This document shows positions 5,998 through 15,302 of a stretch of 41,309 nt of DNA, one piece after another. The first letter of the stretch is position 1; every line of letters begins with the position of its first letter. The stretch comes from a bacterium (GTDB lineage: Bacteria; Patescibacteriota; Minisyncoccia; Phycocordibacterales; UBA5272): assembly GCA_043718735.1 (NCBI GenBank), contig JAYSVC010000030.1, forward strand, positions 1 to 41,309, in the 5' to 3' direction. The notes under the pieces are model-generated. The model did not search any database. It saw only the letters and a list, made by a program, of their open reading frames with translations, and was not told where the DNA came from. The position numbers were made by a program, and so were the translations under genes.

Positions 5998-7443
5998 TTA
6001 ACTTTTATTCAGATTAAGGTCTTCACTGTTAGAGAGTTTATACTTAGTGTTTTTAGTAGAATTTTCTATCTGTATTTTAACAAGCAAACCTTGTGAAACC
6101 CATTTTGTAAACAATCTTGACATCTTATGAAGTTGTGCTATATTGGTCAACTCTCTTGCTTTGGAATTGTTTATGTAATGATTAGACAAAAGATACTCTT
6201 TAACTTTTTCCCACTCATCTTGCCTCTTCTCATTAAGCAAAACAACTTTTATAGAGTCTTCGTAAATTGGATAAGATAAGTAAATTGGATCATAAAGATT
6301 TTGCTCTCGCATTTCGTTTCTCATGGCCTGAACACCTTCATTTCTATCAAGATTAGGTTGTTCTGGAAATTCTCTCAGATGCTTTACTATTAAATCATTT
6401 CTATACCCATCTGCTCTAACGCGTCCGATATTTGATGTTGTTATGTTGTATGGGAATAATCCTGGATTAATTATTTCAATCCTGTCCTCAAATATACTTA
6501 TTTCTATATCTCTTTTAATAAAATAATCTCTATGGATAATTGAATTTGTTATAGCCTCTTTTACTGCACGTTCTGGTATTTGATATTTAGTTAGAAACCC
6601 AGAATGTATTTCTATCCCATTTCTCAGTAGAAGTAACACATAATCTTGAGTATCTTTTATTATTTTTATAAGTGGTCCTTCTAAGGTTTTTGGTATCCCT
6701 TTTAGATTCGGAACTTCACCAAAAGTTTCAATTGTGCCAGAATACTGAAAAACTCTCACAGCACACTTTGTATCTAATATATTGGTTGGATGGAGTGCAA
6801 ATAACAATACAGAAGCTCTGGTTGGCAATAATATCCCTTGCTCATTTTTTCTTGCTAAACCTGTGCTAAATAATGTGTCTCGTATTGAACTTATAGGCAA
6901 TTCTCTAAACTGCTTCCAAGATTCATAGTGCTCTGTGTTCAATAATTCAAAATCTACATCCACAAGCTCTATGTCTGCTTTTTCAAAACCTTTAGCATAG
7001 CTCATTTTTATAATCTCTTGAGGAGATAGCTTTTTATTACTTTTATTTTGTCTTATCCATACCTCATTATTTATAGAATGAAATACATTAGGACTTTTTT
7101 GAATAGTTAGGTGCACAATTGTTTTATTAACAATTTCATCTTTAATTTTTATAGGGATCCAAATATTTCCAATTGGAGGAACAATTTTCTGCACCTCTCT
7201 ACCAATCTCATCAAATAAATCCATATTTTCTTCTAAGCCAAATATTCTATCTCTTCCTTTTAATTTTGTTTTTTCTGGGTCATCAATTCCAAAAAAAATT
7301 ACACCCCCTTCCATGTTAGACATCGCAACTATGGTCTGAATAATCTTAGTCACAACCTTATCACCTTTCAATCTTTTGAATTCTATTTTTTGAGTTTCTT
7401 CCGGAATGGCAAGAATTTTGTCGACAATTTCTTTATCTAGCAT
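5998..7443 (-). CDS. AlbA_2 (Schlafen-like) DNA-binding domain + HATPase_c_4 ATP-binding protein (COG2865-type)
   Basis: N-terminal EETQKIEFKR is an AlbA_2 motif. AVKEAITNSIIHRDY is an HATPase_c_4 motif. The C-terminal part looks wHTH-like. Confidence 0.7.
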   Translation of the reverse strand: MLDKEIVDKILAIPEETQKIEFKRLKGDKVVTKIIQTIVAMSNMEGGVIFFGIDDPEKTKLKGRDRIFGLEENMDLFDEIGREVQKIVPPIGNIWIPIKIKDEIVNKTIVHLTIQKSPNVFHSINNEVWIRQNKSNKKLSPQEIIKMSYAKGFEKADIELVDVDFELLNTEHYESWKQFRELPISSIRDTLFSTGLARKNEQGILLPTRASVLLFALHPTNILDTKCAVRVFQYSGTIETFGEVPNLKGIPKTLEGPLIKIIKDTQDYVLLLLRNGIEIHSGFLTKYQIPERAVKEAITNSIIHRDYFIKRDIEISIFEDRIEIINPGLFPYNITTSNIGRVRADGYRNDLIVKHLREFPEQPNLDRNEGVQAMRNEMREQNLYDPIYLSYPIYEDSIKVVLLNEKRQDEWEKVKEYLLSNHYINNSKARELTNIAQLHKMSRLFTKWVSQGLLVKIQIENSTKNTKYKLSNSEDLNLNKS

Positions 7444-7461
7444 GAGGTTATTTATAATATA

Positions 7462-7490
7462 ATTATAACATTTTTACTTTAAATTTGTAA
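7462..7490 (-). promoter_or_regulatory. Promoter TTACAA-N17-TATAAT with TGT extended -10
   Basis: Minus-strand TTACAA at 7485-7490, TGT at 7468-7470, TATAAT at 7462-7467. Confidence 0.5.
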
Positions 7491-7541
7491 ATTAAAAAAC
7501 ACTTTTTTTACAAAACAGGAAAACTTAATGTGCACAATAAT

Positions 7542-7568
7542 AAAAACCAGACGCGAGGTCTGGTTTTT
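7542..7568 (-). terminator. Rho-independent terminator (possibly the native terminator of the tRNA-Lys/tRNA-Asn unit, now separated by the island)
   Basis: Stem CCAGAC (7547-7552) / GTCTGG (7558-7563), with an A-run before it and a T-run after it. Confidence 0.7.
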
Positions 7569-7688
7569 ATTATTTTGCTCCCTATACTGGACGAGTTCAG
7601 AACTGTTAACTGGGGTAAAATTGAGAGTGATTTAAGGTATAGTGGTCTCTTTGGATTATTTGAAATTAAAGAACTTCAAAACTTTTGA

Positions 7689-8363
7689 TTATAAGATATT
7701 TAATGGTTTATACGTCTTCTTCAACTTTTTAACAGTTTTCTCAAAATATCTTTTTGCTTTTAAGCTTTTGAATGGCCATATTTTTTGCACTCTATTAAAA
7801 AATGCTCTTGTAAAGTGTCTGATTATTAATTCATTATCTATTCCGTATATTTCATAAATATAACCAAAAGACAGCGATAATATCTCGTCACTCATCAAAG
7901 TTATTTGCTTGAATGCTTTAGCTTCACTAATTTTTAACGGGTTGGACAGTCTTCCTTTTATATTAACTTTTTTACCTTTTTTAGGTAAACCAACATAAAC
8001 ACTATTCTGTTTAACGCTCTCTAATTTACCTTTCGAGACACCTTCAAGAAATCTTTTATGAGTATCTCCGTGTTCAGACCAATTATTAAAATAAGAATTA
8101 TGGAAAAAATAACTCTGTTTACCTAAATGACTATAAAACATATTTAAAAAATCTTGTTCAAGTTCGCCTAAACCATCATCCCAGTGGAGACCTTTTTCAA
8201 CCATATGGACTTTACCTATTTCTTCTAGTGCAAGAATTGATAAAAAGTATGCACTAGCAAAAGATTTTTTCTTATGTAAATGTATAGAGTCTTTATGTAA
8301 TCTAACAGCGTTATGAAAAGAGAGTTCTCCTATCTTTTCTAGTTTTTTACTACTTATTCCCAT
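7689..8363 (-). CDS. AbiV-like (HEPN) abortive-infection protein
   Basis: SFASAYFLSILALEEIGKV resembles the AbiV/HEPN N-terminal signature. The size, 224 aa, is typical. The call is from memory. Confidence 0.55.
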   Translation of the reverse strand: MGISSKKLEKIGELSFHNAVRLHKDSIHLHKKKSFASAYFLSILALEEIGKVHMVEKGLHWDDGLGELEQDFLNMFYSHLGKQSYFFHNSYFNNWSEHGDTHKRFLEGVSKGKLESVKQNSVYVGLPKKGKKVNIKGRLSNPLKISEAKAFKQITLMSDEILSLSFGYIYEIYGIDNELIIRHFTRAFFNRVQKIWPFKSLKAKRYFEKTVKKLKKTYKPLNIL

Positions 8364-8422
8364 CTCATAATTATATCATGACACCTTACTTTTCTTTACA
8401 TTTTATTGTATAATTACAGTTA

Positions 8423-9739
8423 ATGAAATATAAGTTGGAAGACGATTACGAACCATTTAGTGGCATACAAGAATTATTTGAAAATGACAAATACCTTCTC
8501 TTTCTTTTAACCTTCTTAGAGGCGTACAAAGACGATAGAGACCATATAAGATTGTCTGAACTTACTAAAAATATTGACTGGAGTCATGAAGACTTTCACG
8601 ACAACTTACCAGATGAAGACTTTTACACTTATCAAGAAAGGGCTTTTAGTCAGGCAGAGATGTTTTATGAGTATTCACGATTAGGATTTTTTACAGCTGT
8701 GGGTATAGAAGATTACGAAGAGACAATAAATAAAATATTACTACATTTTGCTAGAGAAATAAAAGAAGAAGAGCTTAACCGAGATACAGCTAGTTATTTT
8801 CAAAATATAATAACAAATCTTATTTATTTTGCAGATAAAAGGAAAAATATGTTAGAAAAAGATAATGAAAGAAAAATTAAGAAGGGTCTATCCAAAGAAA
8901 ATCTTGATGAGTTTTTTAAGGAACTAAGAAGAAAAGATATTTTTATTTCAAAAGAAAATAGATATTTCAATAAATTACACGAACTTATGGGGGTTATTCC
9001 TGAGGACGTAACAATACTTATAGATAAAAATAAAAAAGGTTTTGATAAACTGGAAAAAGAGTTAAAAAAATATTTAGATGAGTTTATAAACAATAACCAC
9101 CACCTTAATAATAATCATAATGAGGCAAGAGAGCACGTATTCACACAAATTAACTTATTCATCAGATATATAAATACTCTTAATCCCGTAAATGGTTATG
9201 TTAATATACCCTTCTCAGTTCTTAAAGAAAAAAAGTTTGAAGCCATAAAACTAATAAAATACTTAGAGTTACAAGGACAAGTTAAGGTAAAGTGGAGTGA
9301 CGAGAAGAGTCTGAAATTAAAGTTTGCTAAAAATATGATTGATGAAAATCTATTTTTTGAAAATGAAAATAAAATAGAAACTCCTAATAATAATCCTAAA
9401 ATAAATAAAATTAAGTTTAACTTAAGTTTTTTACCTACCACTGGAATACTTGAAATAGCAAACAGAGATGGAGCTAAGTATAAAATAATAATACAAGGAC
9501 AAGTCCAAAAAGAAGTAATTAGGACTATATTTAAAACCCCAGAAAATACTTATTCTGAATGGAGTTTATATGAAATAAGCGAAGAGCTTGGTGGAGTGGA
9601 TATGAATGAAAGAGCCATTAACAATGCTCTATACCAGTTAAATAGAAAAGTTCAATTAGCGATACCAGAAATAAAAAATCTATTTGAGTTGAACAAACAT
9701 TCAGCAACAATAAATACAGAATATGTCATCAAAAATTAA
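8423..9739 (+). CDS. Hypothetical K/E/N-rich protein (438 aa) with possible C-terminal winged-helix
   Basis: Clean ORF divergent from the AbiV gene. The C-terminal ~90 aa (EWSLYEISEELGG...INNALYQLNRKV) looks like an OmpR/CadC-type wHTH. No NTPase motif seen. Confidence 0.6.
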   Translation: MKYKLEDDYEPFSGIQELFENDKYLLFLLTFLEAYKDDRDHIRLSELTKNIDWSHEDFHDNLPDEDFYTYQERAFSQAEMFYEYSRLGFFTAVGIEDYEETINKILLHFAREIKEEELNRDTASYFQNIITNLIYFADKRKNMLEKDNERKIKKGLSKENLDEFFKELRRKDIFISKENRYFNKLHELMGVIPEDVTILIDKNKKGFDKLEKELKKYLDEFINNNHHLNNNHNEAREHVFTQINLFIRYINTLNPVNGYVNIPFSVLKEKKFEAIKLIKYLELQGQVKVKWSDEKSLKLKFAKNMIDENLFFENENKIETPNNNPKINKIKFNLSFLPTTGILEIANRDGAKYKIIIQGQVQKEVIRTIFKTPENTYSEWSLYEISEELGGVDMNERAINNALYQLNRKVQLAIPEIKNLFELNKHSATINTEYVIKN

Positions 9740-9763
9740 GTAAACTTAAGTAAGCAATAAAGT

Positions 9764-9792
9764 ATCCTGAAGTTAGTCCTTCGGGATTTTTT
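9764..9792 (+). terminator. Rho-independent terminator
   Basis: Stem ATCCTGAAG (9764-9772) / CTTCGGGAT (9779-9787) with one G-U pair, followed by a T-run. Confidence 0.7.
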
Positions 9793-9948
9793 ATGCAGAT
9801 TACTAACGACAACAATTCTATAAAAGTAAATATAGAAAAGAAAGAAGAAATACCAGATTTTGAAAATGTGGTCGGTCTTTTTAACCTACTTTTAAAAATT
9901 GATAAGCGTGTTAATCCGCATATTTATAAAAATAATAATACAAAATAA
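9793..9948 (+). CDS. Possible small ORF (51 aa), not in the ORF track
   Basis: ATG at 9793 and TAA at 9946-9948, ending 2 nt before the next ATG. No SD or family match. Confidence 0.3.
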   Translation: MQITNDNNSIKVNIEKKEEIPDFENVVGLFNLLLKIDKRVNPHIYKNNNTK

Positions 9949-9950
9949 AT

Positions 9951-10235
9951 ATGGAAAAGTTCTACACATTTATACCAGATTACTCAATAGGCGAAGGAGA
10001 AAAACTTCTCTTCCCTATAACATCAGAAGAAGTCTTAAAGAGATTAGAAGATAAGCTTATAAACAAATACTTATATAGAGTGCATATGGCTCTTTGTTGT
10101 GTTGATAATATAAAAAAGCACTTAATAAAAGCTATGGATGAGGCTTCACTTATGGCTTTAGATGATAATGAACCTATATGGAAAGAGATAGATAAAAAAT
10201 ATCAAGAAGAAATACTAAACTCCATGAAAATATGA
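9951..10235 (+). CDS. Hypothetical protein (94 aa)
   Basis: ATGA stop/start overlap with the downstream Rep gene. Confidence 0.5.
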   Translation: MEKFYTFIPDYSIGEGEKLLFPITSEEVLKRLEDKLINKYLYRVHMALCCVDNIKKHLIKAMDEASLMALDDNEPIWKEIDKKYQEEILNSMKI

Positions 10236-11359
10236 TAGATACCATCTGCCTACTTATACCAAAGGATAAATTAATTTTCTTAAATGAAAGTAATAGTCCT
10301 AGTTGGAACTTACAATCTCATACAGAACAGTATGATAGGTTTGTAAAAAACCCTACAAAACTTCAAAAAGAAAGTGGTTACTACTACCCTCGTCTTACTG
10401 GATACAAAAGAAAATATAATGATGAACGCAATGTAAAAATTGAGTTCTCAGTTCCAAAGATTATCTACAATAACAACTTAGACGAAGTTGAAGAAAATCA
10501 ATTTGACGAAATAGTGAACACTTTAAGAAATAGACTAAGAGAAATGGGTATTGTAGCAACTGAAAGTACTATCAAAAATGCAGGAGTAAGCTCTATGCAC
10601 TATTCTAAAAATATAATACTTCAAGATGGGTACACTGTTAATCAAGTAATATCAGAACTAAATAAGATAGACCTGCGAAAGACTTTTGATTTTGCAAAAG
10701 CAAGATTTATCAATGATGGTCAAAGTCTATATCTCCATACTACCTCACACGAGTTTACAATCTATGACAAGCTAGCTGATATGAAAAAGGATAAAAAGCG
10801 TGCAATAGATAAAGACCAAACAATGATACAAAGAACTCTATTTAATCAAATAGATAAGAAAAAAGTCTTGAGCGAAGTTTTAAGATTTGAAGTAAGACTT
10901 AGTAAGAAAGTAAAAATGGATAGCCTGCTTGAAAAACTTGGGTATTCTAAACATATGAACTTTGAACAATTATTTAAAAAAGAAATAAGTCAAAAAATAG
11001 TTACTCATTATTGGGAAACTTTAATCACAGAAAGAAACCTTGGACTATTCACTGTACAAAGTTCAGATAAAGACTTGCTTAGAAGTATATATAGAGCTAT
11101 ACCGAATATAAAACCAAATAGAGCCATATATCTAACGGGATTACTATTACTCGCAAAAGATGGTAACGGGATGCGAGAACTTCGGTCCATATTAGAAAAG
11201 AAATCAAATGATAGAACTTGGTTTCGTATCGCAAAAGATGTAAGAGAATTATCAAGCTCACTACCCTCTAACTTGGTCAGAGGCTGGGTAAAACAAATAG
11301 ATAACGCATTATTAACTTATAAACCATTAAGAATAAAAGATTATGAAGAAATTACCTAA
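10232..11359 (+). CDS. Rolling-circle replication initiator, phage/plasmid gene II/X (Phage_CRI)-like
   Basis: N-terminal MIDTICLLIPKD resembles f1 gpII MIDMLVLRLPF. LRFEVRLSKK resembles gpII VRFEARIKTR. Comparison is from memory. Confidence 0.5.
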   Translation: MIDTICLLIPKDKLIFLNESNSPSWNLQSHTEQYDRFVKNPTKLQKESGYYYPRLTGYKRKYNDERNVKIEFSVPKIIYNNNLDEVEENQFDEIVNTLRNRLREMGIVATESTIKNAGVSSMHYSKNIILQDGYTVNQVISELNKIDLRKTFDFAKARFINDGQSLYLHTTSHEFTIYDKLADMKKDKKRAIDKDQTMIQRTLFNQIDKKKVLSEVLRFEVRLSKKVKMDSLLEKLGYSKHMNFEQLFKKEISQKIVTHYWETLITERNLGLFTVQSSDKDLLRSIYRAIPNIKPNRAIYLTGLLLLAKDGNGMRELRSILEKKSNDRTWFRIAKDVRELSSSLPSNLVRGWVKQIDNALLTYKPLRIKDYEEIT

Positions 11360-11381
11360 GCAAAAAAGAAACGAAATAGAA

Positions 11382-11419
11382 TTACTAATTGAAAAACAAA
11401 TGAAAGTTTTTACTAATTG
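11382..11419 (+). repeat. Direct repeats TTACTAATTG x2, with further (A/G)TAATACA x3 and TGTAAAG x2 repeats up to 11503. Candidate iterons/origin.
   Basis: TTACTAATTG at 11382-11391 and 11410-11419. TAATACA at 11431, 11445 and 11497. TGTAAAG at 11478 and 11488. The region lies immediately downstream of rep. Confidence 0.45.
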
Positions 11420-11471
11420 TATTATAAAAATAATACAAGAAAAGTAATACACATTATAAACAAAAATACTG

Positions 11472-11500
11472 TTGCAATGTAAAGAATTGTAAAGTATAAT
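11472..11500 (+). promoter_or_regulatory. Promoter TTGCAA-N17-TATAAT for the xis-M-R-recombinase operon
   Basis: TTGCAA at 11472-11477 and TATAAT at 11495-11500. A small hairpin CCAAG/CTTGG follows in the leader. Confidence 0.6.
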
Positions 11501-11534
11501 ACAACCAAGTAAGACTTGGATAAATAATCTTATT

Positions 11535-11723
11535 ATGAACGAAAAAAATACAAAAGAGTTTTACAAAGCTGAAGAGCTTGCCGAAAAATTAGAGGTCAAC
11601 ATTATGACTATCTACCGCTACATAAAAGCTGGTCGTCTCAAGGCTTATAAAATCGGTAAAGAGTTCAGAATAGACAAAGACGAGTTTAACGCTTTTCTTA
11701 AAAGTGTAAGAACATATGAGTAA
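11535..11723 (+). CDS. Excisionase-family (MerR-like HTH_17) DNA-binding protein
   Basis: EELAEKLEVNIMTIYRYIKAGRLKAYKIGKEFRI matches the excisionase-type HTH pattern. Confidence 0.75.
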   Translation: MNEKNTKEFYKAEELAEKLEVNIMTIYRYIKAGRLKAYKIGKEFRIDKDEFNAFLKSVRTYE

Positions 11724-12651
11724 TAAAAAAAACATAACTTATTCCTCACCAACTTTATTCGCTGGAACGAGTAAGAAAATTAACCATACTACTACTTTCA
11801 TTGATTTATTTGCTGGAATAGGAGGCTTTCATATAGCATTTCGTAACGCTGGTGCTGAATGTGTTTTTGCGTCTGAGTGGGACGAACACGCAAGAAAAAC
11901 ATACATTGAAAACTTTTATAAAAATGACCCAGCTCTTTTTGACGACGGTAACTTTGTTGGAGACATAACAAAAGTTGATAAAGCCTCAATACCTGATTTT
12001 GATATTCTTACAGGAGGTTTTCCTTGTCAGCCGTTTAGCCAAGCAGGACACAAAAAAGGTTTTGAGGATACAAGAGGAACTTTATTTTTTGATATTGCAG
12101 AAATACTTAGGATAAAAAGACCAAAAGCATTTTTCATTGAGAATGTTAGAGGGTTACTTACTCACGACTTAGGAAGAACTTTTGAAACAATTAAAAATAC
12201 AATCACTGAGGATTTGGGCTACTCATTTCATTTTGGAATTGTAAAAGCATCTGACCACGGATTACCACAACATAGACCAAGACTTTTTATGGTTGGTTTC
12301 AGAGATAAAGATATTGTGTTTACACCCCCTATAAAAAGAGAATTGATGTATACAATGTCAGATGTCTTTGAGGGTCAGGCAGAGAAAAAAGTTGGATTTA
12401 CTTTGCGTGTTGGAGGTAAGGGTTCAAGCATTACTGACCGCAGAAATTGGGACAGTTATATGGTTGACGGAAAAGTTAGACGGATTACTCCAAAGGAGGG
12501 CAAGCGAATGCAAGGATTTCCTGACGATTTTGTTTTCCCTGTTACTGATAATCAAGCAATGAAACAACTTGGTAACAGTGTTGCGATTAGGGCTATCCAA
12601 GACTATGCACAACAAATAATTGATACTTTAAATAAACACTATGAAAAATAA
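11716..12651 (+). CDS. DNA (cytosine-5)-methyltransferase
   Basis: Motif I FAGIGGF, motif IV GGFPCQPFS, motif VI ENV, motif VIII QHRPRLF, motif X GNSV. Confidence 0.92.
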   Translation: MSNKKNITYSSPTLFAGTSKKINHTTTFIDLFAGIGGFHIAFRNAGAECVFASEWDEHARKTYIENFYKNDPALFDDGNFVGDITKVDKASIPDFDILTGGFPCQPFSQAGHKKGFEDTRGTLFFDIAEILRIKRPKAFFIENVRGLLTHDLGRTFETIKNTITEDLGYSFHFGIVKASDHGLPQHRPRLFMVGFRDKDIVFTPPIKRELMYTMSDVFEGQAEKKVGFTLRVGGKGSSITDRRNWDSYMVDGKVRRITPKEGKRMQGFPDDFVFPVTDNQAMKQLGNSVAIRAIQDYAQQIIDTLNKHYEK

Positions 12652-13717
12652 TAATCCAACAACAGGAAATACGGGAGAATGGAGTGAACTATACGCACTT
12701 GGATTTTTACTTGCTAATGGTGGTGTGTACGGTGCTGATAGTAAACAAAATAGAAAAGATGATTTATTCTATAAGGTTTTAAGAGTGATTTTCCAAGGTA
12801 AAGAAAACAAAGAACGAGTGTCTTATGACATCAATGATGAAAATGTTGTTATTTACTTTGATAATAAAAGGGTCTCATCAATAAAAATTAGTAAGATAAA
12901 AACGGTCCTGAATAAGTTTTTGCTTTCACTTACCTCAAAGAACGAAGGGCGAGCATACAAATTAGAGACTGGCGAGGAAATGATGAAGTTACTCAAAAAA
13001 GAAGTTATAAAAGCATCAAGTAAAGACAAGAAAGATTTGGACTTGGTGTTACTTGATATAAAAACAAAGATACAAACACCTGAGATTGGTTTTAGTATAA
13101 AGTCTCAAATAGGTAGTCCCTCAACACTCATCAACGCGTCAAAGGCTACTAACTTTATTTACGAGGTCTTAGATAAGAATGGTAAGACACCAAAGACTTT
13201 ACCTGACCTACACCCTAAGAATGTAAAAGATAATATATCTTTATTACTTGATAGTGGCTATCAAGTCGTTTTCTCTAAAATGGAAAGTGCTACTTTTCAT
13301 AAAAATCTTACTCTTATAGACAGTAAACTTCCTGAGTATGTTGCTAAGTTCTTACTCTCATTCTTTTCAAGAGGAGCAAACTCAATGAGCGACTTAGTGA
13401 ATAAAAGTTTTACTGGTGAGGCAGGAAAGCAACCGATATATAAGATAAAAGAGTTTTTGAGTATTATGGCTCTTGGTATGATGCCTAATACTGATTGGAA
13501 TGGAATACTAACAAGTCTTGGAGGAATGCTTTTAGTAAAGAAAGACGGTGATGTGCTTTGTTATTATCTCTATAACATAGAGGATTTTCAAACTTACCTT
13601 TTGGACAACACAAAACTTGATACACCCAGCACAACACGATACGGTATTGGAAAGATAATACAAGAGGACGGAAAGATGTATATAAAACTAAACCTACAAG
13701 TCAGGTTCATAAAATAA
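12641..13717 (+). CDS. Type II restriction endonuclease, HpaII-family-like
   Basis: N-terminal GEWSELYALGFLLANGGVYGAD resembles the remembered HpaII-family start. It overlaps the C5-MTase gene by 11 nt. Confidence 0.6.
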   Translation: MKNNNPTTGNTGEWSELYALGFLLANGGVYGADSKQNRKDDLFYKVLRVIFQGKENKERVSYDINDENVVIYFDNKRVSSIKISKIKTVLNKFLLSLTSKNEGRAYKLETGEEMMKLLKKEVIKASSKDKKDLDLVLLDIKTKIQTPEIGFSIKSQIGSPSTLINASKATNFIYEVLDKNGKTPKTLPDLHPKNVKDNISLLLDSGYQVVFSKMESATFHKNLTLIDSKLPEYVAKFLLSFFSRGANSMSDLVNKSFTGEAGKQPIYKIKEFLSIMALGMMPNTDWNGILTSLGGMLLVKKDGDVLCYYLYNIEDFQTYLLDNTKLDTPSTTRYGIGKIIQEDGKMYIKLNLQVRFIK

Positions 13718-13718
13718 T

Positions 13719-15242
13719 ATGAAATCTCTAATCATAGCTAGAGTATCAACAGAAGAGCAAAGAGAAGCGGGTAATTCATTGCCAGCTCAACAAACAAGAC
13801 TTCTTAACTATATAGAACGCTCATATAGTAAAACCGATAACTCTAAGCTTGAAATAGATAAAGAGTTTATATTTGATGAAAGTGCTTATAAAGAACACAG
13901 AAAAGAGTTTGGTAAAATACTTGAATACATAGATTTACAAAAAGAAAACATAGCAGTTTGTTGTGATAAGGTCGACAGACTTTCAAGAGATTTCTTAACA
14001 GGATTGCCAGGATTAGAAAGACTTAGAAGAGTTGGTAAGATTGAATTACATTTCCCTTCTGATAATTTAGTTTTACACGTAAACTCTCCTGCTACAGACT
14101 TATTTCATTACAACATAGCAGTCGCTTTGGCTCAATATTATTCTAATGCTATAAGTGATAATACAAAAAGAGCCTTAGAGCAAAAGAGAAGAAATGGTGA
14201 ATGGACTGGTCCTGTAAGACTAGGCTACTTGAATGTCCCACTTGATGAAGAAAATAGGACCAGGAAAACTATAATCATAGACCCTGAAAGAGGACACCTA
14301 GTCGCAGAGATGTTTGATAAATATGCTACTGGTAATTACTCACTTGAGACCATAAGACAAGAAATGGCTAGTAAAGGCCTTAAGACCCGCAAAGGAAATA
14401 GCGTGTCTAAAAGTGGTGTTGAAAATATTTTAAAAGATAGTTTTTACTGCGGTATAGCGATGTCTAAAAAATATGGGCCATATGCTCACATATATCCAAA
14501 ACTTATAGACAGACCGGCTTTTGATAAGTGTAAGGAAATAAGAGAAAGTAGAAAGAAAAAACCAAATAAAGAAAAATCAAAAGACTTCATTTTGAAAGGT
14601 ATTTTAACTTGTTCAAATTGTGGTTGTAACATAACAGCTGAACAAGTAAAGAAGCCAAATGGTAATATTTATAACTACTATTCTTGCACAAATGGTAAAG
14701 GAATATGCAAGAGAGTGTATGTATCAGAAAAGACATTGCTAGAGCCTGTATATGGCATTTTAGGGCGTTTAGAAGGCATATCACAAGAAGCTCAAGAAAG
14801 ACTTATAAAGGAATTAAGAAACTTGAACGAAACACAAGTTGAATATCATAAAAAGCAAGTAGAAAGAATACAGTCTGAATACAAAAAATACCAAACAAGA
14901 AAAAATAGTATTCTTGATATGTATGCGGACCAGAGTATTACTAAGTTAGATTATGACAAAAAGATGCAAGAGTATAATGACAAAATGCAACTTCTTGAAA
15001 TTGAGCTTTCTGAATATGGAAACGCAGACACAGAATATAAAATCGTTATATCTACAGTATTTTCTCTGGCAAGAAGAGCTAAAGAAATATTTGATAGTTC
15101 TGAAGTGAATGAAAAAAGACAGATTTTGAGTTACCTACTTCAGAACTCCACCTTAAATGAAAAAACGCCTTGCTATACAATGCGTTCTCCGTATAATCTG
15201 ATACTCGGACTACATAGTAACCCTAACTGGCTCCGTGAGTAG
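13719..15242 (+). CDS. Large serine recombinase (integrase)
   Basis: The resolvase catalytic N-terminus IIARVSTEEQ is followed by a recombinase domain. A zinc ribbon (CSNCGC...YYSCTNGKGIC) and a coiled-coil tail complete the protein. Confidence 0.9.
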   Translation: MKSLIIARVSTEEQREAGNSLPAQQTRLLNYIERSYSKTDNSKLEIDKEFIFDESAYKEHRKEFGKILEYIDLQKENIAVCCDKVDRLSRDFLTGLPGLERLRRVGKIELHFPSDNLVLHVNSPATDLFHYNIAVALAQYYSNAISDNTKRALEQKRRNGEWTGPVRLGYLNVPLDEENRTRKTIIIDPERGHLVAEMFDKYATGNYSLETIRQEMASKGLKTRKGNSVSKSGVENILKDSFYCGIAMSKKYGPYAHIYPKLIDRPAFDKCKEIRESRKKKPNKEKSKDFILKGILTCSNCGCNITAEQVKKPNGNIYNYYSCTNGKGICKRVYVSEKTLLEPVYGILGRLEGISQEAQERLIKELRNLNETQVEYHKKQVERIQSEYKKYQTRKNSILDMYADQSITKLDYDKKMQEYNDKMQLLEIELSEYGNADTEYKIVISTVFSLARRAKEIFDSSEVNEKRQILSYLLQNSTLNEKTPCYTMRSPYNLILGLHSNPNWLRE

Positions 15243-15302
15243 GGATCGAACCTACGACCAATTCCTTAACAGGGAACTGCTCTACCGCTGAGCTATCACG
15301 GA
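15228..15302 (-). tRNA. tRNA-Asn (GTT), CCA encoded
   Basis: Manual cloverleaf: acceptor TCCGTGA/TCACGGA, anticodon loop CTGTTAA, T-loop TTCGATC, 75 nt. Confidence 0.9.

Follow-up and report, generated by a model that had tools for sequence, protein, structure and literature searches.

Why does the gene for a large serine recombinase (LSR) extend into a neighboring host tRNA gene and terminate there? This question is raised by an integrative element of 7.65 kb (about 7577 to 15234) located at the 3' end of a tRNA-Asn gene, on a contig from a ~650-kb metagenome-assembled genome of the Patescibacteria (Candidate Phyla Radiation, CPR). All coordinates refer to the window, meaning the entire stretch of 41,309 nt that was analyzed. 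Very probably, the attachment site of the element (attP) lies within the 3' part of the LSR gene itself, and integration at tRNA-Asn replaces a 35-amino-acid (aa) C-terminal tail of the enzyme with Arg-Glu-stop, an exchange that we infer to modulate LSR function. The split architecture as such is evident from the sequence and from comparison with relatives, and the evidence for it begins at the two ends of the element.

At the right end, the initial annotation of this locus had placed the recombinase stop codon inside tRNA-Asn and had described the final 15 nt of the coding sequence as the reverse complement of the tRNA, and the coordinates of the open reading frame (ORF) and of the ARAGORN tRNA call confirm both points. 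The ORF runs 15 nt into tRNA-Asn(GTT). Its closing codons, aac tgg ctc cgt gag and the tag stop, occupy 15225-15242, and the 15 nt that overlap the tRNA read as the reverse complement of its CCA, its discriminator G, and the 3' strand of the acceptor stem. The codon for Trp504 coincides with the CCA of the tRNA (15228-15230). LSR residues 1-505 are encoded by the element, and Arg506, Glu507, and the TAG stop are contributed by the acceptor stem and T-stem of tRNA-Asn. Such an ending is not a matter of chance, because 50 of 80 homologous genes from other genomes terminate in the same manner.

The enzyme that ends in this way has the features of a serine integrase. Its N-terminal resolvase catalytic domain (PF00239, E 4.4e-17) carries the nucleophilic serine and the conserved arginines, and it is followed by a Recombinase domain (PF07508, E 1.3e-13) and then by a zinc ribbon (PF13408, E 9.8e-6), as is typical of serine integrases. 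In an alignment of 33 family sequences, R8, S10, D83/D86, R87, and R90 are invariant or nearly so, as are, without exception, the zinc-ribbon cysteines C298, C301, C303, C323, and C330. Thus, the chemistry is that of a serine enzyme and not that of the tyrosine recombinases exemplified by the Mx8 and SSV-type integrases. A search of the LSR against PDB sequences with phmmer returned no match, and a family profile was required: residues 180-478 of this profile align to the C-terminal domain of A118 integrase (4kis), nearly to the end of the chain, and the profile also matches the structure of the TP901-1 N-terminal domain. The AlphaFold2 model of a full-length homolog, P0102 (mean predicted local distance difference test score, pLDDT, 80.9), predicts long helices at residues 370-402 and 408-451 (pLDDT ~70-93), which may be candidates for the coiled-coil motif that serine integrases embed in the zinc ribbon. 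All of these canonical domains are retained by the prophage form of the LSR, which lacks 35 residues of a C-terminal extension of about 60 residues.

The missing residues are found at the opposite end of the element. As had been reported initially, a frame is open there from the ctc at 7578 to the TGA at 7686-7688. A profile built solely from the tails of long-form homologs, with the window excluded, was searched against a six-frame translation of the window, and its sole significant match is the frame at 7491-7685 on the plus strand (E 3.4e-4; the next match has an E value of 0.4). Furthermore, the left-end tail and that of full-length P0102 share 54% identity across 35 aa (E 2e-15). Based on the profile match and on the identity with P0102, the left-end frame is therefore the missing C-terminus of the LSR. 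It is not an independent gene, since in-frame starts are mostly missing upstream of the core at which recombination is placed below: in 29 of 38 elements the stretch from the upstream stop to the core lacks an in-frame ATG, and 13 of the 38 lack any kind of start codon there.

Several features of the tail speak to its status as a protein segment. In an alignment of 28 tails, codons 13-26 have second-position entropies of ~0-0.2 and third-position entropies of 1.2-1.9, which indicates purifying selection at the protein level in a region beyond the predicted P' half-site of attP. The tails have a proportion of nonsynonymous differences (pN) of 0.25 and of synonymous differences (pS) of 0.80, with synonymous sites saturated, and they end at a conserved position (...LQN-stop). 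The pattern in codons 13-26 and the conserved end argue for a tail that is a translated, selected peptide, and this peptide is translatable only from a circular (or tandem) form of the element. The first nine codons, which cover ~25 bp beside the core and include the motif D-x-F-R-T, are different in that their third positions are conserved as well, which indicates a constraint at the DNA level, as would apply to a P' half-site.

The same arrangement recurs among relatives. More than 1,200 LSR relatives are found, mostly in Patescibacteria, and the 120 closest homologs are conserved to a ...P-N-W-L block, after which they fall into two classes. About 100 stop within 2-30 residues, with endings such as RG, RE, PG, or R-G-Q-D-S-N-L-R-P that correspond to the reverse-complement translation of a tRNA acceptor stem and T-arm, and about 17 read on into a conserved tail, whose motif is L-[PR]-x-[LV]-D-x-F-R-T-x-N-W. 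In all, 80 homologous loci drawn from other genomes were examined, and attL/attR alignments were made for 38 elements. At about 40 of the 80 loci, the tail is an orphan frame that lies 5-10 kb upstream of the LSR and on its strand, and at least 55 loci adjoin the 3' end of a tRNA gene, mostly tRNA-Asn. The LSR 3' end lies within a called tRNA-Asn at 41 loci, within tRNA-His, -Leu(CAA), -Gln, or -Asp at nine, at a place where ARAGORN calls no whole tRNA at 19, at the end of the contig at seven, and at an attP-like junction at four. Most of the 19 uncalled loci carry tRNA 3'-half sequence at the junction. At all five of those that were checked, a group I intron (Rfam RF00028, 52-88 bits) directly follows the 3' exon of tRNA-Asn, and the lack of a whole-tRNA call there is explained by this interruption. 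The split-gene layout is family-wide, and it is shared by hundreds of relatives of this element. Homologs that end in the short ...WL-RE form outside of a tRNA junction were sought as well, because the initial annotation had named recombinases ending in ...NPNWLRE in a nonintegrated context as evidence that would count against it; none was found, and the three homologs with this ending (L013, L044, and L062) all adjoin tRNA-Asn.

The end-in-tRNA layout is also kept where the target is another tRNA gene, namely tRNA-His (L021, L055), tRNA-Leu CAA (L031, L073), tRNA-Gln (L054, L056, L060), and tRNA-Asp (L077, L085). These target-switched members provide material for the study of how the specificity of serine integrases changes.

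Some relatives are represented in what appears to be the unintegrated state. Three contigs of the size of an element carry an uninterrupted long LSR gene and no tRNA: L093 (7412 bp), L125 (7625 bp), and L126 (8733 bp). The ends of L093 overlap exactly over 43 bp, as would be the case for an assembled circle. In all three contigs the gene order wraps around, from restriction-modification (RM) genes through the LSR, minus-strand cargo, backbone genes, and HTH_17 gene to RM genes again, which is a circular permutation of the island in the window. Of 38 elements, 34 have the core in frame at both ends, and the ORF is uninterrupted on the attP-form contigs, which places attP inside the LSR coding sequence, and the prophage protein differs at its C-terminus from its counterpart (507 aa ending in WL-RE versus a reconstructed 540 aa with tail). 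The initial proposal that circularization would extend the LSR frame into the left end of the element gains support from these contigs and from full-length relatives, whose conserved tail matches the left end of the window when the two predicted C-termini are compared with homologs.

Where exactly the crossover occurs had been left between two candidate cores, GCTCC and TAACTGG. Across the 38 aligned elements, GCTC(C) is the sole block common to attL and attR. In the window, the attL frame reads ttg-ctc-cct and the attR frame tgg-ctc-cgt, with GCTCC in common, and in 34 of the 38 elements the core occupies the same codon register in the tail frame at attL and in the LSR frame at attR, compared to a chance expectation of one third. 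An identity between attL and attR of only 5 bp, in the window element and in 33 others, without long direct repeats, agrees with the short attachment sites of serine integrases. TAACTGG, the other candidate, is indeed present as a 7-bp identity at both ends (7606-7612 and 15222-15228), which is the point in its favor. Crossover there would give an episomal extension of 24 residues and predicts the circular junction CCTAACTGGGGT. However, it would also remove the segment L-P-x-L-D-x-F-R-T, which every long-form homolog holds between its Asn-Trp dipeptides, and it fits neither the block shared across elements nor the empty sites of relatives, which end at GGAGC. Crossover at TAACTGG is therefore very improbable, and the sequence is rejected as a core: it arises by coincidence from two conserved Asn-Trp dipeptides, of which the LSR body and the tail hold one each. 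Hardly credible is a crossover deeper in the tRNA, by which the element would carry a tRNA 3' end of its own, in the manner of a classical tDNA island, and the LSR would have the same C-terminus in both states. This is the customary layout of tyrosine-integrase islands in tRNA genes (PMC4383910), but a search of the left end for a displaced tRNA 3' fragment found none beyond GCTCC, the left end encodes the conserved tail instead, and homologs on attP-form contigs continue into the tail and not into tRNA sequence. With GCTCC as the core, the predicted episomal gain is 35 residues in place of two, at the upper end of the 26-36 residues initially estimated.

The arms on both sides of GCTCC can be assigned provisionally. 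The family consensus of the P' arm places GTTCAGAAC ~15-23 bp away from the core. In the tRNA arm (B'), the T-arm sequence TCGAAC lies at a distance of ~11-18 bp, and the B arm in the host flank is simply AT-rich. Dyad symmetry in the reconstructed attP and attB is weak (0.37 and 0.34 of positions complementary, respectively), and each arm has a GTTC-n-GAAC-like motif. Structures of the A118/LI integrases indicate that the half-sites of attB and attP are displaced relative to each other, outward by ~4-5 bp. The anatomy of P, P', B, and B' given here is a proposed one.

Empty target sites in relatives reveal which parts of the junction belong to the host. The tRNA-Asn genes of eight relatives from the same genus or family (G011, G001, G012, G010, G019, G009, G013, and G002) are unoccupied, are 97-100% identical, and end in GGAGC followed by A-rich sequence and AT-rich hairpins, without an encoded CCA. 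This resembles the attB reconstructed from the window, where fusion of the left flank with the tRNA body at the core yields GGAGC and an A-rich run. In the window, as had been pointed out initially, a CCA is encoded in just one of the three tRNA genes, that for tRNA-Asn, and G005, which has a related LSR at the same position, likewise reads GGAGCCA. Because empty tRNA-Asn genes lack the CCA and the occupied genes of G005 and the window have it, the encoded CCA can be attributed to the Trp codon of the element. The rule is not absolute, since G008, of the same genus, has an unoccupied tRNA-Asn with an encoded CCA, no recombinase, and a terminator hairpin directly downstream (L102, G008:C27); this CCA could be native or a trace of a past element. 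The suggested survey of tRNA-Asn genes in relatives without the island thus yields eight genes without the CCA and one with it. It also amends the view that the host tRNA supplies the end of the LSR, which holds for Arg-Glu and the stop but not for the CCA/Trp504 codon, given that the empty tRNA genes of relatives have no CCA.

The left host flank offers a further point of comparison. A perfect 17-bp hairpin, flanked by an A run and a U-rich run, abuts the attL core; it begins 4 nt past the predicted original 3' end of the tRNA and is probably the terminator of the tRNA operon; the empty site of G010 has the same layout. A consensus terminator scan of 7400-7750 flagged nothing, despite the strength of this hairpin on folding. 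Synteny of the left flank in relatives was not directly usable, as it yielded only matches of 23-58 nt, several of which are conserved P'/tail DNA of other elements, and the unoccupied tRNA-Asn sites were used in its place.

A cycle can be proposed from these observations. The circular form would encode an LSR of 540 aa ending in the conserved 35-aa tail. Recombination with attB takes place inside GCTCC, a core that reaches from the last acceptor-stem bases across the discriminator to the first C of CCA. Integration joins codon 505 to the tRNA, as the source of Arg-Glu-stop, and shifts the segment coding for the tail 7.65 kb away, to attL, while the Trp codon of the element gives the tRNA-Asn gene its encoded CCA. 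On excision, the LSR would regain its long form.

What the exchange of C-termini does to the enzyme must be considered separately from the architecture. Modulation is favored over inactivation because the truncated prophage LSR keeps every canonical domain; the swap probably modulates the LSR rather than destroying it, and could alter its activity, directionality, or stability, as in Mx8 IntP/IntX. Outright inactivation, in the "suicidal" manner of SSV-type integrases, would leave the island locked unless a second copy acted in trans, an outcome that appears improbable. A search of the window's genome for a second LSR or tail copy found none. Inactivation has a precedent in integrases of the SSV family that carry attP in the ORF and are split on integration (PMC7253208), and integrated copies greatly outnumber long forms. 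Nevertheless, the loss touches only the extension that follows the canonical A118-type fold, each of the 80 integrated genes sampled is full-length and intact up to the junction, the attL tails are still open, and circular or attP-form contigs exist. Somewhat less improbable, although still unlikely, is a real architecture with a swap that has no function, in which the ORF spans attP because the half-sites of compact elements happen to fall in coding sequence, and both proteins are equivalent. The tRNA-derived endings do range freely from 2 to ~30 residues, which would suit such indifference, but codons 13-26 lie beyond a half-site of ~25 bp and combine near-zero second-position entropy with saturated third positions, and the tail has its conserved ...LQN-stop end.

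Certain observations favor this functionless swap and, at the same time, weigh against modulation. The strongest tail motif, D-x-F-R-T, overlaps the P' half-site with its DNA-level constraint and conserved third positions, and its apparent protein conservation is therefore partly not due to protein selection. In the AlphaFold2 model of P0102, the tail consists of three short helices with low confidence (pLDDT 40-69), which leaves a structural role unsupported. To these can be added that the functional difference between the 507-aa and 540-aa forms is a prediction, and that the long form is not always episomal. Where elements stand in tandem at one tRNA, the distal LSR reads in frame into the tail of another element, the proximal one, giving a chimeric chromosomal long form (L043, L046, and L094). 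Furthermore, the circular junction of the window element, for which read mining had been suggested, did not appear in Logan contigs of the four runs that hold the element: among these contigs, none links 15234 with 7577, as attP would, and none passes over the island, as attB would.

Beyond modulation as such, a more specific version is possible and is put forward tentatively. The swap may be a built-in switch of directionality or commitment, whereby the tailed episomal LSR is tuned for attP x attB and the tail-less prophage LSR differs in attL x attR competence or in stability. The recombinase itself would then carry a record of whether its element is circular or integrated. Such a switch would act alongside a separate directionality factor or in its place, and the family would be the first large serine-integrase group specialized on tRNA 3' ends.

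As a separate observation on the left junction, Logan contigs of two runs end or begin at 7562-7581, beside the attL core, where the depth is 2.8-4.2 compared to 10 in the flank and ~9 in the island. This dip and contig break might mark a point where empty-site or circular molecules open a branch in the assembly graph, which would be a weak hint of their presence.

Parallels for a gene rewritten by integration come from systems with tyrosine recombinases. The intP gene of Mx8 contains attP, and integration creates a new 3' end and a changed C-terminus in a protein that remains active with altered properties (PMC6070905; cited in PMC4383910). The element described here resembles Mx8 in having attP inside the integrase gene and a recombinant gene made by integration, whereas Mx8 is a 49-kb phage with a tyrosine recombinase and a long, complex attP, and the present family consists of LSRs with a 5-bp core on elements of 5-10 kb in Patescibacteria. 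SSV-type integrases, those of archaeal fuselloviruses, target tRNA genes. They share with the LSR a recombination site within the integrase ORF and a gene that is partitioned on integration (PMC7253208). In the SSV type, a tyrosine recombinase is split into two inactive parts; here, in contrast, only a 35-aa extension is exchanged. In mycobacteriophages BPs and Brujita, whose immunity depends on integration, attP lies inside a coding sequence and integration removes a degradation tag (PMC3694055). The likeness is that viral and prophage genomes express different C-termini, but in these phages the repressor is split, a degron is involved, and the integrase is a tyrosine recombinase, whereas here the LSR itself is split.

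Canonical LSRs (A118/LI, TP901-1, Bxb1, and phiC31) have the same domain order, short attachment sites, and tiny attL/attR identity, and differ from this family in its C-terminal extension of ~60 aa that spans attP. To our knowledge, attP lies outside of the int ORF in characterized serine integrases. No description of an attP-within-ORF layout for serine recombinases was found in the open-access literature, in keeping with the initial statement that an integration-dependent C-terminus had not been seen for a recombinase of this kind. The principle is established for tyrosine recombinases, and the serine-recombinase analog of Mx8 IntP/IntX proposed here is, by the literature found, new. The Islander definition of a tDNA-targeting island has an intact tDNA on one side, a displaced tDNA fragment on the other, and a tDNA fragment in attP that restores the gene. 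In the present element the tRNA is likewise intact after integration, but only 5 nt are shared, and the element adds the CCA that the unoccupied genes lack. A survey of inoviruses found such small elements in CPR and required direct repeats of at least 10 bp; a 5-bp core escapes repeat searches with this requirement.

Serine integrases are prized in genome engineering because they are simple and strictly directional. An LSR family that rewrites its own C-terminus would be a natural, testable case of state-dependent control beyond recombination directionality factor (RDF) proteins, an open question that could be approached with two proteins and four short sites. The family also overturns the working assumption, built into island-finding software, that serine integrases avoid tRNA genes. 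In addition, exact ends can now be defined for very common defense-carrying elements of 5-10 kb in Patescibacteria that are missed by repeat-based detection of attachment sites.

Table 1. Positions of the element's genes and attachment sites in the window, and of group I introns and tandem arrays at related loci
Feature	Position	Strand	Basis or remark
Host flank (B arm): 17-bp perfect hairpin with flanking A run and U-rich run	7534-7576	-	Fold -25 kcal/mol, z -7.15
attL core GCTCC	7577-7581	.	Shared block and codon register
Orphan frame, displaced LSR C-terminal tail: shared Leu codon, 35 residues (7581-7685), TGA 7686-7688	7578-7688	+	Tail profile match, P0102 identity, 28-member alignment
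P' half-site of attP; contains GTTCAGAAC and also encodes D-x-F-R-T	7582-7605	.	Conserved third positions, here only; family consensus
AbiV/HEPN gene, left-end cargo	7689-8363	-	
438-aa protein, left-end cargo	8423-9739	+	No significant Pfam/PHROGs family
Conserved backbone genes (51 aa, 94 aa, 375 aa)	9793-11359	+	Same gene string in L093, L094, L125, L126
375-aa backbone protein	10232-11359	+	ESM-Atlas nearest clusters
62-aa HTH_17/excisionase-like protein	11535-11723	+	Conserved in related elements
C5 cytosine methyltransferase	11716-12651	+	
HpaII-family restriction endonuclease	12641-13717	+	
LSR gene, prophage form, 507 aa	13719-15242	+	ORF; Resolvase, Recombinase, Zn_ribbon_recom domains
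P half-site of attP (predicted), within LSR coding sequence, LxL...PNW region	15198-15229	.	Family consensus; binding predicted
tRNA-Asn(GTT), integration target	15228-15302	-	ARAGORN
attR core GCTCC: first C of CCA, discriminator G, last three acceptor-stem bases (read on + strand)	15230-15234	.	Shared block
Group I introns at related loci	L047:11543-11823, L016:7139-7428, L024:11549-11790, L038:6464-6734, L092:11526-11817		Rfam
Tandem arrays at related loci	L046:11491-19735, L043:11515-11614, L094:5649-17250		Second LSR of L046 ends in tRNA-Asn

The remaining genes of the island suggest how the element may be maintained (Table 1). Pfam and PHROGs searches with the 438-, 51-, 94-, and 375-aa proteins returned no significant family. 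The nearest ESM-Atlas clusters of the 375-aa protein (score 0.97) are 19-26% Phage_CRI/G2P_X_C, the rolling-circle Rep type of filamentous phages, a lead from which the protein is possibly a Phage_CRI/gpII-type rolling-circle Rep. The HTH_17 protein is a candidate directionality factor or regulator. Together, the putative Rep-type protein and the HTH_17 protein fit a replicating episome.

The cargo of the window island (7689-13717) and of L093, L094, L125, and L126 consists almost entirely of defense genes, including RM systems of the HpaII, Tsp45I, BanI, and TaqI types, AbiV, a Pycsar-like cyclase with PycTM, DUF3800, and SocA_Panacea. With sizes of 5-10 kb, these elements resemble minimal mobile defense cassettes for genomes of ~0.6 Mb.

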